A DNA stretch of 64,000 nt, taken from Eledone cirrhosa (lineage: Eukaryota). The stretch lies in contig OZ024745.1 in the NCBI GenBank assembly GCA_964016885.1, forward strand, positions 44,454,001-44,518,000, read 5' to 3'. The notes beneath the pieces are model-generated. The model saw only the letters and a list, made by a program, of their open reading frames with translations, was not told where the DNA came from and ran no database searches. The first letter of the stretch is position 1. Every line of letters begins with the position of its first letter. The translations under genes were made by a program, and so were the position numbers. Shown here one piece after another: positions 42,919 to 54,356 of the stretch.

Positions 42919-43434
42919 TGTTAAAATAATGTTTTGTTAATGCAATTAATTTTCTTTTCATTATGGATACATTATCAATTGATAAAAAATTATTTTTGGC
43001 CCACCATGTCACGAATGGTAGCTTGCATTTAATTATATGTTATCCATGCTGTAGGCAGCCTTGAGATATTTTTACCAATATTAATCTTTTAATATAACTT
43101 CTATATTATGAAGCTGTTTTGCAAGTAAACAGAAATTAAGTATATTTTCCAGTGACACAATACAATATATCATACGATTAGATATATTTTTTTAATGACA
43201 ACATAATATGGAAAATATTAAAATCCTCTTATAATAGATATGACATTATAAGATGTAATACATTAAACTATGATGTAATACCTAGATACATAAAAAATAT
43301 TTCATTTCCTAACAAGTAATAATTCTTTACAAAGCTCAATGGAATATGGTCCCATATTCAATAGTACTGCTATTATATGTGTATTATATGTATATATATA
43401 TATTATATTATATGTATATTATATGACCCTTTAT

Positions 43435-43556
43435 AATCTGAGTTCAATTCCCGCCAAGGTTAACTTTGCCTTTCATCCTTACGGTGTTGATAAAATAAAG
43501 TACCAGTAATACACTGGGATAATTGCCGGCCTTATGCCAAAAGTAGAAACAATTAT
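43435..43556 (+). mobile_element. SINE 3' part, inverted relative to 42812-42918
   Basis: ctgagttcaattcccgccaaggttaactttgcctttcatcc...agtagaaacaattat. Confidence 0.75.
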
Positions 43557-43899
43557 ATGTATGGATATACGTGTGTGTGTATACGGTTCTTATATATTTG
43601 ATATATATTTATCCTTATCTTTGGATTTTAGTCTTCAAATTTATTATTATTACTATATATATATATATATATATATATAGTTTGTCTAGTTTGTGTATAT
43701 GTAAATCTTTATATTTGATAATCTCCCATAAGGTTGAGATGCAATTTGGGCAAAATGCGCTTTCTAGCAACCAGCCTACTAGCCGTAAGGCACCAATCCC
43801 ATTCTTTCTGACTTGACCACTGCCACGTCACAGTTCTTAGCCATTTTGAATTCGTTTCTGGCGGGGATCATTTAAGAAAAATCTTTGTCTAAGTGAGTT

Positions 43900-43982
43900 T
43901 GTTTCCTGATGAGTTCGAAGCTCGAGAATTTATCCTTGATAGGATATTTCCGAAAGCGAACGAAACCCTAAGGGTAGAAACG
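43900..43982 (+). ncRNA. Type I hammerhead ribozyme motif
   Basis: Stem I gtttc/gaaac; CTGATGA 43906-43912; stem II gttcg/cgaac, extended by tatcct/aggata; GAAA 43962-43965; stem III ccc-taa-ggg; GUA cleavage triplet ending at 43976. Confidence 0.85.
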
Positions 43983-44337
43983 TAATCCTGGTATGTGTAT
44001 ATGCATTTTTTCTTCTAACTTTAATTTTATACCTAATTGTGTATGGTTGACGATATATTTAATCACGTGCTATTGAAATGATATATAAATATTCTATGGC
44101 TGTTGATCGCGAATAAATGGCTATAGTTTATTTATCTATTATTTCTTCACAGGTGCCTTTTAATCTTATAGCCTGGTTTAATTGTTTAATTGTGGTTGAT
44201 TATGCTAATTGGGAGAGGAAATTGAGTATATATCTTATCAAATGATTCTAAGGACATAATTTATAGTATATATATATATGTACATATGTGTGTGTATACA
44301 TATATACATATATGGTAGTGTGGAAGATGGACATTAA

Positions 44338-44369
<32 letters not shown>

Positions 44370-44374
44370 ATATG

Positions 44375-44450
<76 letters not shown>

Positions 44451-44571
44451 AATTTATATCTAGTAACATTTATATACATACAGATACATATCAATGCTAG
44501 CAAATATATTGAATTATTTTTTAATAAGTTTCCAGAGTCCTCGCTATGCCTGGAAACTTACATGAAAAAAG

Positions 44572-44653
44572 ACTTTCCTGACGACGGAATGCTTTTCTAT
44601 ATATTCTTCGGAAAATATATTTACTCCATTCCAGAAACTAATTAGTTGGAAGT
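44572..44653 (+). ncRNA. Minimal type I hammerhead motif, copy 1
   Basis: Stem I actttc/ggaagt; CTGACGA 44578-44584; stem II ggaatg/cattcc (C.A mismatch at its base); GAAA 44634-44637; palindromic ctaattag as stem III; GUU triplet ending at 44647. Confidence 0.7.
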
Positions 44654-45116
44654 GATATTTTAGTAAGTAAGTCAATTTTATAATTTTTTTATAATTTTAT
44701 AATTTTCTTATCTTACGTCTCTCATATTATTGTTCTGCAACCCCATGCATTGAACCACAACGTTACTAAGGCAAAATCTATATATTTGCTAGCATTGATA
44801 TGCATCTGTATGTATATAAATGTTACTAGATATAAATTCTTTATAATTATCTCCAATTCATTTGTCGAGCAATATTGGCCATGACTGCTGCTATAGTAGT
44901 AGGCAGGCCGCTGTCTTATTAACAACTCGCTTTCCACTGATTGACCTCGATGTCACGTGATTGATTCTTTTTGAATTTGCCACAGACGTAGACGCAGTGA
45001 TTTTCTCAATGGCTGGGATTTCAGTCCACGCTTCGCTATTTTCTTTCCACTGAATTATATTTTTTTTAATAAGTTTCCAGAGTCCTCGCTATGCCTGGAA
45101 ACTTACATGAAAAGAG

Positions 45117-45198
45117 ACTTTCCTGACGACGGAATGCTTTTCAATATATTCTTCGGAAAATATATTTACTCCATTCCAGAAACTAATTAGTTGGAAGT
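45117..45198 (+). ncRNA. Minimal type I hammerhead motif, copy 2
   Basis: Same core as copy 1, offset by 545 nt. CTGACGA 45123-45129, GAAA 45179-45182, predicted cut after 45192. Confidence 0.7.
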
Positions 45199-45265
45199 GA
45201 TATTTTAGTAAGTAAGTCAATTTTATAATTTTTTTATAATTTTATAATTTTCTTATCTTACGTCT

Positions 45266-45336
<71 letters not shown>

Positions 45337-45436
45337 CACTGAATTTGTTTTGCAAGTTTTTTTATATGAAATCGTGTGCTGAAACAAATATTGTTATATT
45401 TGGGGAGGGTCATATTGTTATAATATTGCCAGAAAT

Positions 45437-45720
45437 AATAATAAAACACACTCACTGTTTGGTTTGAATTGGTTTTCACTTCTGTATATTTTATATCCTT
45501 ATAGTTAATTTAGCTGGCAATCAATGTTAATCATTGATTGACCAACAGTTAAAAATATAGATATAAGTATGATAGACTATATATATATATTTATATCTAT
45601 ATTTTTAACCGTTGGTCAATCAATGATAAACATTGATTGCCAGCTAAATTAACTATAAGGATATAAAATATACAGAAGTGAAAACCAATTCAAACCAAAC
45701 AGTGAGTGTGTTTTATTATT
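45437..45720. repeat. Long palindrome: 130-bp arms, ~2 mismatches, 24-bp spacer
   Basis: 45437-45566 is the reverse complement of 45591-45720. Confidence 0.93.
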
Positions 45721-45899
45721 ATTATCTAGCTGGTAGTATCTAGCCCCCTCCACTAGTTCCTACTCTTTACCTGTAAGAGTTGTGATGTTCCATGTTCCCA
45801 TATTCAAGGTTTGCTCCCTTACGAACCCTCTTTGGCATCTAAGAATATGCAATCAAGAACGCATTTGGGGTTCTTCTCTCTTCAGAGAGGTACATTCTC

Positions 45900-46332
45900 G
45901 CGAGGTAGAGAGAATATTTTGCTGATCTCCTAAACCCAACCACACAGCATCTTCTGATGTACATAAGGTACATCTGGGAGCAATGACTAATTTCTTGAAG
46001 GCTGAGGTCACAAGAGCAATTAAAAAGCTTGAATGTGGCAAGGCTGCTGAGGAGGATGAAATCCAGCCTGAGATGTTAAAAGCCTTAAATAGAGAAGGTA
46101 TTCACTGGCTGACTCATATGTGGCAGGTAGCCTGGATCTCTGGAAAGGCACTAGAGCAATCGCTGTCGGGAGTGATAATCCCAATTTTCAAAAAGGGAGA
46201 CAAGAGAGATTCTTCCAATTGTAGAGGAATCTCCTTGTTAAGCCCCCACGGTACAGTCTATGTTAAATGTCTAGCAAAGAGATGCAAGGAGATTGTCAAG
46301 TCCAAGCTAACTGATGAACAATGTGGTTTTGC
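45900..46332 (+). mobile_element. RTE LINE fragment
   Basis: GKAAEEDEIQPEMLK, IIPIFKKGD..NCRGISLLS and EQCGF. Same family as 52458-54356. Confidence 0.8.
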
Positions 46333-46461
46333 CACATATCCTCACATATCCTATGTTGTAGCTTACATTACATGATATATTATGTTCTAACTAATTGAAT
46401 TAAAAGGTAACAATATAGGATTCAATAAAGCTGAAATTCTAATGTAAAGTTGGATACTTAC

Positions 46462-46552
46462 GGTTTTAACAGAGTGATACCTATATAAACGACGACTATT
46501 ATAAACAGAAGAACAGCGATGATAATTCCAAACCACAAATAAATAGAGTTTT
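46462..46552 (-). CDS. RPTP transmembrane exon: (K)NSIYLWFGIIIAVLLFIIVVVYIGITLLK(P)
   Basis: ~25-residue hydrophobic run. tttatag acceptor, gtaagt donor. Phase 1 to 2. Confidence 0.88.
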
Positions 46553-46899
46553 CTATAAATATAGAATAGAAACAAATTATGTAATAAAAGTATATAAGAT
46601 ATTTGGAGTATTGACAAATTTTTCCTCAGGTACTAGGCCACATTTTGGGACTGAGTTGTCTGTCCATTGAAGATTGGAAACCACTGTGAATTTTAAGGGA
46701 ATTTGAAGTTTGAATCAAAAAGGACAAAGTTAAATACTGCTGAGCTCTACACTCATTGTATTTTCCATCTCTATTGTCTTTGTATATCTGGAATACTAAT
46801 ATTTAATATAATAATGGTGAGGCTGAATATCCTGTGAAGCTCATGTAATATTCTCCACTTTTTTATGTCTAGTTTTATATTATTTTATTATTATTATAT

Positions 46900-47500
46900 C
46901 CCCCCTCCTCCTGCATCAAACTACTTTGTCAGTGATTCATGTGTGACCTGTTGGAAGCAAGTCCACTGTCCCTCATGATCAAACCCTCTTTTTGAAGCCT
47001 AAAAATTGTTTTCAATCATCACAAGAAAGCTAGTTGAAGTTTCCACCAGTTTGAGAGCCTTAGTTACATAGGATTGCACAATCTGTATCTTCTTTATTTT
47101 CACACAAATCCTCCTAGCTATCAGATTGTGATCTGTGCCAACATCTGCCCTTTGGTAGCTATGAACATCATACAAGGATAATCTCCACTTAGTGCTAATA
47201 TAGATGTAGACAATCTCATTTCTGATGTTACCACACAGTGAAGTCTGTGTATACATCTGTGAGCAAATAATGTGTTACTAACATTAGTAGTACCAATAGT
47301 CTCTCACCACATGTGTCATTATTTAGTTGAGCATTGAAGTCACCCATCACCAGCTTCATCTCATGCTGCAAAGTGCTGTGGGACCATACATAAGATTTCT
47401 TGGCATGATCTCTATCATAAACGAAGGGACCAGGTTACCCCACAATATGATGGCAGAATATACTTGACCACATGCTAAACATGATCATAAAGACAACATT
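46900..47500 (-). mobile_element. Decayed RTE/BovB-like endonuclease remnant
   Basis: DVHSYQRADVGTDHNL (APE SDH-like motif) and GDFNA. Boundaries approximate. Confidence 0.55.
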
Positions 47501-48066: not shown

Positions 48067-49665
48067 AGGCTAAACAACAACACCATTACCTAATTGTCCT
48101 ACTATAGGCTAAACAACAACACCATTACTTAATTGTCCTACTATAGGCTAAACAACAACACCATTACTTGGTTGTCCTACTATAGGCTAAACAACAACAC
48201 CATTACTTGGTTGTCCTACTATAGGCTAAACAACAACACCATTACTTGGTTGTCCTACTATAGGCTAAACAACAACACCATTACTTGGTTGTCCTACTAT
48301 ATGCTAAACACCACCACCATTACTTGGTTGTCCTACTATAGGCTAAACACCACCACCATTACTTGGTTGTCCTACTATAGGCTAAACAAAAACACTATTA
48401 CTTGGTTGTCCTACTATAGGCTAAACAACAACACCATTACTTAATTGTCCTACTATAGGCTAAACAACAACACCATTACTTAATTGTCCTACTATAGGCT
48501 AAACAACAACACAATTACTTGGTTGTCCTACTATAGGCTAAACAACAACACCATTACTTGGTTGTCCTACTATAGGCTAAACAACAACACCATTACTTAA
48601 TTGTCTTACTATAGGCTAAACAACAACATTACTTGGTTGTCCTACTATAGGCTAAACAACAAAATTACTTGATTGTCCTACTCTAGGTTAAACAACAACA
48701 CCATTACTTGGTTGTCCTACTATAGGCTAAACAACAACACCATTACTTGGTTGTCCTACTATAGGCTAAACAACAACACCATTACTTGGTTGTCCTACTA
48801 TAGGCTAAACAACAACACCATTACTTAATTGTCCTACTATAGGCTAAACAACAACACCATTACCTAATCCTACTATAGGCTAAACAACAACATTACATGG
48901 TTGTGCTACTATAGGCTAAACAACAACACAATTACTTAATTGTCCTACTACAGTCTAAACAACAACACCATTATTTGGTTGTCCTACTATAGGCTAAACA
49001 ACAACACCATTACTTGGTTGTCCTACTATAGGCTAAACAACACCACCATTACTTGGTTGTCCTACTATAGGCTAAACAACACCATTACTTGGTTGTCCTA
49101 CTATAGGCTAAACAACAACATTACTTGGTTGTCCTTTTATAGGCTAAACAACATTACTTGGTTGTGCTACTATAGGCTAAACAACAACACCATTACTTAA
49201 TTGTCCTACTATAGTCTAAACAACAACACCATTATTTGGTTGTCCTACTATAGGCTAAACAACAACACCATTACTTGGTTGTCCTACTATAGGCTAAACA
49301 ACACCACCATTACTTGGTTGTCCTACTATAGGCTAAACAACAACACCATTACTTGATTGTGCTACTATAGGCTAAACAACACCACCATTACTTGGTTGTC
49401 CTACTATAGGCTAAAAAACAACACCATTACTTAATTGTCCTACTATAGTCTAAACAACAACACCATTACTTGGTTGTCCTACTATAGGCTAAACAACAAC
49501 ATTACTTGGTTGTCCTTTTATAGGCTAAACAACAACATTACTTGGTTGTCCTACTATAGGCTAAACAACAACACCATTACTTGGTTGTCCTACTATAGGC
49601 TAAACAACAACACCATTACTTGGTTGTGCTACTATAGGCTAAATGACACCATTATTTGGTTGTCT
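48067..49665. repeat. 39-bp minisatellite, ~41-42 copies (ctaaacaacaacaccattacttggttgtcctactatagg)
   Basis: Direct read. Occasional shorter units. Confidence 0.97.
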
Positions 49666-51447: not shown

Positions 51448-51525
51448 CTGAAAGAAATATTAGGAAAATCAAATTAAAGAAATTGAATGATATTTTGTAT
51501 ATTTAAGGAAGGATATTGTTACATT

Positions 51526-52450
51526 TAAGGAATGATATTTTTATAATTGAAGAATGATATTTTGTATACTTGAAGAATGATATTTTGTATACTTGAAGAA
51601 TGATATTTGTATACTTGAAGAATGATATTTTGTATACTTGAAGAATGATATTTTGTATACTTGAAGAATGATATTTGTATACTTGAAGAATGATATTTTG
51701 TATACTTGAAGAATGATATTTTGTATACTTGAAGAATGATATTTGTATACTTGAAGAATGATATTTTGTATACTTGAAGAATGATATTTTGTATACTTGA
51801 AGAATGATATTTGTATACTTGAAGAATGATATTTTGTACACTTGAAGAATGATATTTTGTACACTTGAAGAATGATATTTTGTACACTTGAAGAATGATA
51901 TTTTGTATACTTGAAGAATGATATTTTGTACACTTGAAGAATGATATTTTGTATACTTGAAGAATGATATTTGTATACTTGAAGAATGATATTTTGTACA
52001 CTTGAAGAATGATATTTTGTATACTTGAAGAATGATATTTGTATACTTGAAGAATGATATTTTGTACACTTGAAGAATGATATTTTGTATACTTGAAGAA
52101 TGATATTTGTACACTTGAAGAATGATATTTTGCATACTTGAAGAATGATATTTGTATACTTGAAGAATGATATTTTGTATACTTGAAGAATGATATTTTG
52201 TACACTTGAAGAATGATATTTTGTATACTTGAAGAATGATATTTGTATACTTGAAGAATGATATTTTGTATACTTGAAGAATGATATTTTGTACACTTGA
52301 AGAATGATATTTTGTATACTTGAAGAATGATATTTGTATACTTGAAGAATGATATTTGTATACTTGAAGAATGATATTTGTATACTTGAAGAATGATATT
52401 TTTACACTTTAGGAATGATATTTTTTACAATTTGAAGAATGATATTTTTA
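51526..52450. repeat. 22/23-bp minisatellite, ~41 copies (ttgaagaatgatattttgtatac)
   Basis: Direct read. The paralogous array at 57592-57790 has ~9 copies. Confidence 0.97.
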
Positions 52451-52457
52451 CAATAAA

Positions 52458-54356
52458 GGGATCTCCTTGTTAAGTCTCCCCGGTAAACTCTATGCTTAGT
52501 GTCTGGTAAAGAGATGCAGAGAGATTGTCGAGTTCAAGCTAGCTGATGAGCAGTGTGGTTTTTGTCCCGGACGCAGCATAGCCAACCAAATATTTACACT
52601 GCGGCAGGTCTTTGAGAAATCATGGGAATATTGCCAAGAGGTATATTCTTGTTTTGTAGACCTTGAAAAGTCATATGACCATGTTCCTCAGGATTTACTG
52701 TGGAAGGTTCTGCAGGAGTATGGGACCGATGGTTAGCTTCTTGTTGCCCTGATGTCTCTATAAGAATGCCTGAGTATTTGTGTTCGAATAAATGGTGCTA
52801 AATCAAAACTATTCAATGTGTGAGTCAGACTCCACCAAGGGTGTATACCTCTCCTGTTCCTTATTTTCATGAACAGGATTGACCTGCCAGTTGGGTTGGA
52901 AGTGGTATCCCGATTGACAGATGTAAACTCAGTCGACTGGAGTTTTCAGACAATATGGTGTTATTTAACTTGACAGAAGGGGATCTCCGACTTGCACTAG
53001 ATAGGTTTAATATTGAGTGTTGCATGGCTGGAATGAAAATCAGTGCTGTAAAAACTGAGACACTTATCCTCTCAAGGAAGCCTGTACAGTGACTCTACAT
53101 GTGAATGGAGTTCCACTGAAGCAGGTGGAGAAGTTCAAGTATTTCCAGGCTATGTTCACGAGTGGTGGAAAGCGGGAGACTGAATTATGTGCAAGAATTG
53201 CAGGAGCTGGTGTAGTAATGTGCCAGCTTCAGCATTCGGTCATCAGAAAGGAGGAAGGTGTAAAAGCCAAACTTGCTATCTTCAATTCGGTATTCATGCC
53301 AACCATTACATCAATCTTCGGTAATGTCTGAAAGAATATGATCATGAATACAAGGGGCCGAAATGGGGTTCCAACAAAGAGTCTTTGGAGTAACATTACT
53401 TGATAGTGTGCATAGTTCAGAGATCAGAGAGTAATATTACTTGATAGTGTGCATAGCTCAGAGATCAGAGAGTAATATTACTTGATAGTGTGCATAGCTC
53501 AGAGATCAGAGAGTAATATTACTTGATAGTGTGCATAGCTCAGAGATCAGAGAGTAATATTACTTGATAGTGTGCATAGCTCAGAGATCAGAGAGTAATA
53601 TTACTTGATAGTGTGCATAGCTCAGAGATCAGAGAGTAATATTACTTGATAGTGTGCATAGCTCAGAGATCAGAGAGTAATATTACTTGATAGTGTGCAT
53701 AGCTCAGAGATCAGAGAGTAATATTACTTGATAGTGTGCATAGCTCAGAGATCAGAGAGTAATATTACTTGATAGTGTGCATAGCTCAGAGATCAGAGAG
53801 TAATATTACTTGATAGTGTGCATAGCTCAGAGATCAGAGAGTAATATTACTTGATAGTGTGCATAGCTCAGAGATCAGAGAGTAATATTACTTGATAGTG
53901 TGCATAGCTCAGAGATCAGAGAGTAATATTACTTGATAGTGTGCATAGCTCAGAGATCAGAGAGTAATATTACTTGATAGTGTGCATAGCTCAGAGATCA
54001 GAGAGTAATATTACTTGATAGTGTGCATAGCTCAGAGATCAGAGAGTAATATTACTTGATAGTGTGCATAGCTCAGAGATCAGAGAGTAATATTACTTGA
54101 TAGTGTGCATAGCTCAGAGATCAGAGAGTCACTCCAGGTAGAGCCGCTACTTCTCCAAATTGAGAGACCACGGCTCCAATACTATGTTGTTAGAATGTCT
54201 CAGGAAAGAATTGCTTGACAGATTTTACAGACAAAAGCAACAGGTAAGAGACCCAAGGGCAGACACTGAGCAACATGGATAACATCCATGAACTTGACTG
54301 GTCATGCTTGGGTGCCCAGCCAGATCAGTTGGAGACGGAAGGAGTGTTTGAAGACT
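52458..54356 (+). mobile_element. Decayed RTE LINE 3' half (duplicated copy 1)
   Basis: EQCGF, FVDLEKSYD, HQG and QVEKFKYF. Interrupted by the 41-bp array. Confidence 0.85.
53390..54127. repeat. 41-bp minisatellite, 18 copies (gtaatattacttgatagtgtgcatagctcagagatcagaga)
   Basis: Direct read. Single copy in the paralog at ~59235-59275. Confidence 0.97.

Follow-up and report, generated by a model that had tools for sequence, protein, structure and literature searches.

The window analysed here, a 64,000-nucleotide stretch of the Eledone cirrhosa genome, carries at 44444-45268 one insertion of an abundant non-coding repeat family, in which an inverted arm is joined head-to-head to a longer forward arm. 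Its features, in window coordinates, are listed below; the cut sites and the monomer that they bound are predictions.

44444-45268, no strand: whole insertion, an inverted arm and a forward arm meeting at a head-to-head junction; the forward arm holds 1.4 units and its terminus is fixed 3' end A
44368-44447, no strand: (TA)n target, left
44444-44515, minus strand: inverted arm, equal to monomer positions 258-329; its terminus is fixed 3' end B
44517-44727, plus strand: direct repeat 1 (pseudo-LTR), 211 nt
44525-44560, plus strand: 11-bp hairpin 5' of the hammerhead (copy 2 at 45070-45105)
44564-44597, plus strand: probable 5-bp pseudoknot involving the stem II internal loop
44572-44653, plus strand: type I hammerhead motif 1, predicted cut after U44647
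44597-44599, plus strand: hypervariable site, centred on 44598 (45143 in copy 2)
44648-45192, plus strand: predicted monomer from cut site to cut site, 545 nt, non-coding, 33.8% GC
44728-44845, plus strand: 118-nt 'tail', the gap from fixed 3' end A (44727) to fixed 3' end B (44845)
44927-44943, plus strand: 17-nt antisense 'lock', the complement of the sequence flanking the cut site on both sides; it lies half-way round the unit
45062-45272, plus strand: direct repeat 2, whose terminus is fixed 3' end A inside (TA)n
45117-45198, plus strand: type I hammerhead motif 2, predicted cut after 45192
45268-45333, no strand: (TA)n target, right

The first-pass annotation of this DNA had described two near-identical direct repeats of about 210 bp lying 545 nt apart, and these are real, differing at only three positions (44569/45114, 44598/45143 and 44723/45268). 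The same is true of the perfect 11-bp hairpin (44525-44535 pairing with 44550-44560), of the (TA)n tracts on both flanks and of the lack of an open reading frame, the monomer having no stop-free stretch of 80 codons in any of the six frames. The inverted copy of internal sequence is present (96%) and slightly longer than had been claimed, matching 44444-44515 with 44774-44845 over 72 nt, while the palindrome in stem III is self-complementary as described, at a length of 12 nt (44636-44647) instead of the 8 nt quoted. When both strands of the entire window were scanned for CUGANGA..GAAA..NUH with stems, three sites were found; two of them, at 44578 and 45123, are the type I hammerheads already proposed, and the third, at 43906, is unrelated and had been overlooked.

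This third site belongs to a second hammerhead repeat family, unrelated to the first, at 43680-44262 on the plus strand (680-nt unit, canonical core at 43906, predicted cut after 43976), with 4,496 first-look candidates, TA flanks, a long stem II, a spacing of 116 nt between its two 3' ends and one variable G beside a T6 run. Directly 5' of it, visual comparison matches 43583-43653 (plus strand) to the 3' tail of a young Penelope-like element of the Hydra type. Another abundant TA-associated repeat occupies 45334-45723 (3,474 first-look candidates; inverted arms of 137 nt, 98% complementary and 16 nt apart), and minisatellites lie at 48067-49664 (39 nt x 41.8), 51485-52448 (23 nt x 42.5) and 53388-54129 (41 nt x 18.1). 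ARAGORN found no tRNA in 43000-46500.

Exact matches in the genome number 1,762 for a 24-mer lying immediately 3' of the cut and 185 for a 34-nt hammerhead pattern, against none for either reversed control, so the element is not a chance occurrence, and the family that the first-pass annotation hoped to recover by genome search is indeed abundant. Searching the 3.0-Gb assembly with the monomer gave 137 matches from the best 40 of 2,414 candidates, with up to 98% identity outside the window. We mapped 117 insertions in 115 stretches, a non-random sample made up of the 30 best monomer matches, the first 30 places from each of the two pattern lists, 36 more chromosome-1 places from the 24-mer list and 24 hand-chosen multi-unit or high-scoring places. 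The copies are dispersed over many contigs. Unit length is approximately 541-545 nt in the subfamily of the window and 518-525 nt in other subfamilies, and relatives at 63-78% identity keep unit size and ends unchanged. No open reading frame for a reverse transcriptase (RT) or GIY-YIG endonuclease was found inside any of the 117 mapped insertions.

The ends of these insertions are highly regular on one side and variable on the other. Arm 3' ends fall at two fixed sites, A and B, 118 nt apart, and of the 183 arm ends located at these sites 181 continue into (TA)n; 5' ends vary among arms, as expected of 5' truncation. Arms longer than one unit account for 89 of 194, reaching 2,657 nt and up to 5 units per arm. 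Among the 117 insertions, 75 are head-to-head, with end types A+B in 62, A+A in none and B+B in one, plus 12 with an end left unclassified by the script (two of these are A+B by eye); A+B therefore describes 62 of the 63 classified two-arm insertions, one site per arm, and the tail is found at one end only, as in Penelope-type insertions. Subfamily-diagnostic columns are near-uniform within insertions (column 529, for example, is discordant in 0 of 42 insertions at a heterozygosity of 0.61), so each insertion derives from a single haplotype. The inverted partial repeat, taken initially as a Penelope hallmark at a single locus, is now seen family-wide together with partial tandems, 5' truncation, head-to-head arms and fixed 3' ends. 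As PMC8557442 describes them, Penelope-like elements (PLEs) combine partial tandems, an inverted 5' copy and a one-ended tail, with TA targeting in Neptune, Naiad and Hydra, and PMC11167929 shows the PLE tail to be the interval between two internal RT start sites. At 118 nt, the tail described here lies outside the 30-40 nt of PLEs.

In the first hammerhead, stem I (44572-77/44648-53) is followed by CUGACGA (44578-84), an extra C (44585), stem II (44586-91/44627-32) with a UUCG-capped insert, an extra A (44633), GAAA (44634-37) and the palindrome (44636-47). The term 'minimal', which had been applied to this motif, does not suit it, since stem II has 6 bp and a UUCG-capped extension, stem III has 3 bp and a hairpin stands upstream; its peripheral structure comprises a 35-nt stem II insert, the co-varying hairpin and a probable pseudoknot. 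It nevertheless has an extra base after A9, a G10.1-C11.1 pair and a palindromic stem III, and the hallmarks of PLE hammerheads given in PMC4209133 are a 5' extra base, a G-C pair and a palindromic stem III. Nor did the suspicion hold that a C.A mismatch cripples this particular copy: 224 of 226 copies have C44585, 251 of 252 have A44633, and G10.1-C11.1 is kept in all 16 of a set of diverse copies. The mismatch is a family-wide state, for which a G10.1-C11.1 pair flanked by an extra base on each side is the more fitting description. This layout recurs in other hammerhead families of the genome, the loose pattern itself giving 501 matches against 733 in its control. PMC3088659 reports an active hammerhead whose stem II opens with a mismatch, as well as stem I-II pseudoknots.

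Conservation of the core and covariation of the stems across genomic copies, on which the first-pass annotation had staked its reading, are both observed. The 13 core positions are intact in 179 of 221 full copies. The stems were compared in 16 hand-picked diverse copies with divergence of approximately 25-35%, where 91% of stem cells are paired and 27 cells carry a double-sided change against 10.5 in shuffles, a value reached by 0 of 500, with the control inflated by sequence relatedness. Neither the number of pairs with double-sided change (7 against 5.2; 64 of 500 shuffles) nor that of further pair types (19 against 18.4) rose above the shuffle control in these 16 copies. For the 11-bp hairpin in older relatives, 4 of 11 pairs are changed on both sides and 87% of cells are paired. 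A stem I-II pseudoknot pairing GARAA (44564-68) with UUYUC (44593-97) is probable from the sequence: across 113 insertions its variable pair is A-U in 58, G-C in 48, G-U in 5 and something else in 2, a pattern that reflects one lineage split, tracked as well or better by four other columns, and the complementarity is also present in older relatives.

The Rfam check proposed earlier, run over 43000-47000, yielded only AT-rich microRNA look-alikes and nothing matching a hammerhead at E<=1, probably because the 35-nt stem II insert defeats the model. The active hammerhead fold lies 1.8 kcal/mol above the minimum, and the probability of stem I is close to 0 in equilibrium folds of both the monomer and the two-hammerhead precursor, so that cleavage would need dimers, co-transcriptional folding or protein; the palindrome duplex between two copies is predicted at -10.8 kcal/mol. 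Only one of nine Xenopus retrozyme dimers cleaved in vitro (10.64898/2026.07.22.740005), and for an anole PLE the template is uncut RNA whose cleavage requires protein (PMC11167929). At the predicted cut site itself the copies display no scar or clear 5'-end pile-up, with discordant pairs numbering 0 of 214 at column 131 and 7 of 214 at column 132.

Folded as a circle, the monomer reaches -121.9 kcal/mol compared with -95.9 +/- 5.2 for 40 dinucleotide shuffles, and of 13 natural monomers 12 have the cut-site region paired with the lock in their minimum-energy circular fold, the sole exception having a mutated junction. The lock duplex is predicted at -17.2 kcal/mol, a value reached by none of 60 mononucleotide shuffles. 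Located at positions 262-278 of a 522-nt unit or 280-296 of a 545-nt unit, the lock is placed half-way round in a manner that suits a closed rod, although the same helix can form in linear RNA or in the precursor as well; the block so placed indirectly favours the 545-nt circle put forward in the first-pass annotation. In older relatives the junction lacks one A and the lock block is altered to match; for intact junctions, duplexes within a lineage are predicted at -15.5 to -17.7 kcal/mol and those between swapped lineages at -11.7 to -13.9, a covariation that amounts to one lineage switch, while three old copies with mutated junctions bind their lock weakly (-11.1 to -12.1). These models predict an antisense block that co-evolves with the cut site and locks it in a likely circular RNA. 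A second, weaker complement of the cut site is found at 45043-45057 on the plus strand (-9.3 kcal/mol), with 11 nt in common with the lock. PMC7229834 states that such a block is missing from most metazoan retrozyme circles, though not from some mussel ones, in contrast to plant LTR retrozymes and viroids, and concludes that animal retrozyme circles are probably kept uncut by means other than self-pairing.

One position of the unit varies far more than the rest. Median pair discordance within insertions is 1.5% over 533 columns; at column 82 (44598) it is 32% (57 of 178 pairs, in 34 of 82 insertions), with the bases T in 138, A in 50, C in 38 and G in 11, and with 30 and 39 of 178 pairs discordant at the adjoining columns. 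The discordance has no age trend (20/54, 19/54, 12/56), so mutation of the DNA after insertion is not favoured, and the C variant is also present in independent contigs. CpG decay is rejected as a cause, CpG columns being only 4.1% discordant within insertions and A variants common; simple repeat slippage alone is insufficient, since columns 263-269 contain the identical TATATAT run and are not hot; and a spliceosomal lariat with its branch A at 44598 was dropped because +1 is mostly A and +5 is free. Discordance at columns 157-170 was set aside as a gap-placement artefact of a 19-nt duplication. The variable G of the neighbouring 680-nt family (9 of 14 pairs discordant) is not counted in support, because slippage in the T6 run beside it explains it, and a pattern search for that site gave 3 matches only.

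When the compared units of the two arms are equally distant from their arm ends, column 82 differs in 8 of 79 pairs, compared with 49 of 190 for different units (p=0.005; the pairs are non-independent), and the same comparison at other columns gives 88 of 5,699 against 281 of 15,110 (p=0.13). Variants common to both arms at the same end distance suggest linear multimer templates for part of the insertions, since a single monomeric circle would not give lower discordance at the same position. No direction of passage was detected at column 82, shifts to T on the second pass numbering 14 against 8 on the first (p=0.29), which weakens a model based on a jump scar. Site 44598 is likely a hot spot of reverse-transcription error. 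Its cause may be a pause at the entry of the pseudoknot combined with slippage in the AUAU repeat, the leading candidate at somewhat under an even chance; a junction scar at the RNA 5' end (see PMC8857657) would be a good deal less probable, a modified base or odd bond (PMC4787781) slightly less so again, and an error at the DNA level or in the assembly would be improbable.

In sequencing runs X1 and X2 matches are confined to the low-complexity segment 44650-44730 and are uninformative, and in X3 and X4, which come from one sample, the unit is covered as contigs, which cannot show ends, strand or expression. One contig in each of X3 and X4 skips the entire hammerhead (44565-44648) and resumes exactly at the predicted cut site, at a depth of about 120.

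Many PLEs are present in this genome, with the best 150 of 10,597 first-look GIY-YIG candidates scored. Penelope-like open frames of 938 aa and 1,096 aa were found at two loci (L221 and L223), where a relaxed scan revealed no hammerhead, and near-identical Penelope-like copies carry CxCX5C, which PMC8557442 gives as the motif of the TA-targeting Hydra clade. The autonomous partner sharing the repeat, which the first-pass annotation proposed to look for, did not emerge: the comparison covered 50 GIY-YIG loci and 35 of Hydra type, a small part of the 10,597 candidates, and showed no shared repeat apart from nested family copies, and among 20 long-ORF loci a relaxed scan for hammerheads revealed no motif of the family. 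Two family copies (L013:1055 and L019:1501) are fused to Hydra-type sequence with no TA tract between, by nesting or as chimeric cDNA. The Hydra-type element abutting the L019 copy was rejected as partner, having a different hammerhead (U3-A8 core) and no significant monomer match; the one abutting the L013 copy ends at its own long-tail end, so that nesting is as likely as chimeric cDNA, and it was likewise discarded. Two Hydra-type groups deserve mention. The first (L275-L289) is a very young element with copies 99-100% identical, an open frame of at least 584 aa, a tail of about 88 nt and a hammerhead-like motif with core CAGAAGA; the other (L142-L160) is a family whose tail measures about 165 nt and whose hammerhead, with a U3-A8 core, precedes its short end by 61 nt; its end motif loosely resembles that of the family studied here.

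From its sequence, the family would belong with the animal non-LTR retrozymes and appears to behave as a non-autonomous PLE, which is consistent with the non-coding, hammerhead-bearing, Penelope-type mobile element first proposed and is supported by core conservation, stem covariation and the PLE-like insertion pattern. Animal non-LTR retrozymes are non-coding tandem units of about 150-1000 nt with GC below 45% and a type I hammerhead in each, at least two complete hammerheads being consecutive; here the units measure 518-545 nt, GC is 33.8% in the monomer and two complete hammerheads follow one another at 44444-45268. In the accounts of Cervera and de la Pena (2020, PMC7229834) and Li, Clavereau and Pollet (2026, 10.64898/2026.07.22.740005), such elements share with ours the unit size range, the type I hammerhead per unit, the lack of coding capacity, low GC and a proposed PLE helper. 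What sets our family apart from them is the antisense lock, rare there, the extended stem II with its probable pseudoknot, and its occurrence as dispersed insertions of 1-5 units with the full PLE end signature. EN+ PLEs of the Neptune, Naiad and Hydra groups (PMC8557442; PMC11167929; PMC2377424) have in common with it partial tandems, 5' truncation, the inverted 5' copy, the one-ended tail, (TA)n targeting and a hammerhead in the repeat; unlike autonomous PLEs, which encode RT and GIY-YIG domains, the family has no ORF, and its tail is 118 nt against 30-40, with no repeat match to the autonomous elements examined. The minimal PLE hammerheads of Cervera and de la Pena (2014, PMC4209133) likewise have the extra base between A9 and G10.1, the G10.1-C11.1 pair and a palindromic stem III for dimers, whereas ours adds an extra base before GAAA, the 35-nt insert in stem II, a 3-bp stem III and the upstream hairpin. 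With plant LTR retrozymes and hammerhead viroids (PMC7229834) it shares a predicted block of the ribozyme by its complement in the circle; those hammerheads are type III and ours is type I, and in place of true LTRs with a 4-bp target duplication it has variable 5' ends, TA targets and PLE-type insertion.

We therefore favour, with a probability of about 0.68, a tandem retrozyme of 518-545-nt units that is likely copied in trans by the RT-endonuclease of a PLE into (TA)n. A tandem copy would be transcribed, and paired hammerheads would cut after GUU, the 12-nt palindrome serving as stem III between two copies, perhaps with the help of protein. In the released monomer the lock would bridge the two new ends by pairing with both, keeping them in place for ligation and the circle safe from re-cutting; PMC7229834 reports that non-LTR retrozymes form circles. 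A helper enzyme would introduce a nick in each strand of a TA tract, and two cDNAs, one per strand, would start at the two fixed internal RNA sites 118 nt apart, to be joined head-to-head or, in the case of one, truncated. Reverse transcriptase running round the circle would yield new tandem units, uncut linear multimers would be the likely template for part of the insertions, and the enzyme would likely stumble where it meets the predicted pseudoknot, giving rise to the hypervariable position. A more specific version, which we regard as tentative and somewhat unlikely as a whole, combines a viroid-like lock that splints and protects the circle, obligate twin priming from sites 118 nt apart and a single RT scar at an RNA end, modified base or unusual bond distinct from the hammerhead cut, with genomic copies that document Penelope-type integration one molecule at a time. 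Should that version be true, the regeneration of PLE tandem repeats and the role of the ribozyme would become directly testable.

One rival dispenses with the circle. The same class of element and the same helper could operate on an uncut, terminally redundant linear RNA with its 5' end at approximately 44599, the lock keeping the ribozyme off, if RT added untemplated nucleotides and jumped to the next unit, thereby generating the tandems and a hypervariable junction scar. R2 RT adds mainly adenosines in this way (PMC8857657), and the scar, one per unit, is T-biased with T-run expansions, as expected from untemplated dA addition; it is also independent of insertion age, terminal copies are discordant in 8 of 51 pairs compared with 43 of 105 terminal-internal pairs, columns 82-88 contain 7 of the 82 5' ends sampled on chromosome 1, and 227 of 238 copies have a purine at position 83. 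We nonetheless judge this explanation unlikely, given the lack of direction noted above (the T share is 58% on pass 1 and 57% on pass 2), 5' ends that are likewise dense at columns 43-73, TATAT microhomology with the target, which can explain the ends at columns 82-88, and a half-way lock that suits a closed rod. Distinctly less probable is a fossil origin of the hot spot, in which the enzyme misread a modified base or a 2'-5' bond of the template RNA every time it passed. The four-letter mix, the T excess, the errors at the next base and the 5'-end enrichment resemble the signature of m1A, which in PMC4787781 consists of arrest with context-dependent misincorporation, and other TA micro-repeats and T runs of the unit are not hot; yet there are insertions purely C, A, G or T at the site, so that no single base is required, and slippage in the AUAU repeat may explain X>T, G>A and +TA with no such chemistry.

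The ribozyme could also be a dead relic of a PLE pseudo-LTR, kept only as a protein-binding or promoter sequence. The extra base before GAAA, the GUU triplet, the active fold not being predicted at equilibrium and the missing Rfam match would fit such decay. We consider it improbable because the core and stems are conserved, with compensatory changes, across approximately 25-35% divergence, the lock follows the changes in stem I, and, according to PMC3088659, a mismatch at the stem II base is tolerated in natural hammerheads. Tandem units could, finally, arise without any RNA step, as a DNA satellite that unequal crossing-over or local duplication had amplified, a model discussed for retrozyme arrays in 10.64898/2026.07.22.740005; against it stand the spread of copies over many contigs, the TA targets, the head-to-head arms and the combination of variable 5' ends with two fixed 3' ends, and the fixed ends largely refute it, leaving it hardly credible.

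The animal retrozyme class and its Penelope-like link are already published, a derivation of retrozymes from PLEs being argued in 10.64898/2026.07.22.740005, and the bare finding of another such family is therefore modest. Our search, which covered the main text of openly readable papers, found no account of this family, of the covarying lock or of the hot spot; the supplements of the 2026 preprint and the mussel circle folds of PMC7229834 may bear on the novelty of the lock. The value of the family lies in three features drawn from more than 100 copies. A self-pairing lock with compensatory evolution appears to be present here, against the conclusion for animal circles in PMC7229834. The rule of one arm per start site extends to genomic copies, with a much longer tail, the two-site initiation described in vitro in PMC11167929. 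The hot spot, by differing between units of one insertion, is a natural marker for distinguishing circle from linear template, and it bears on the regeneration of pseudo-LTRs, which PMC2377424 states to be unexplained. A short non-coding element with thousands of copies would be a handy substrate for such tests.
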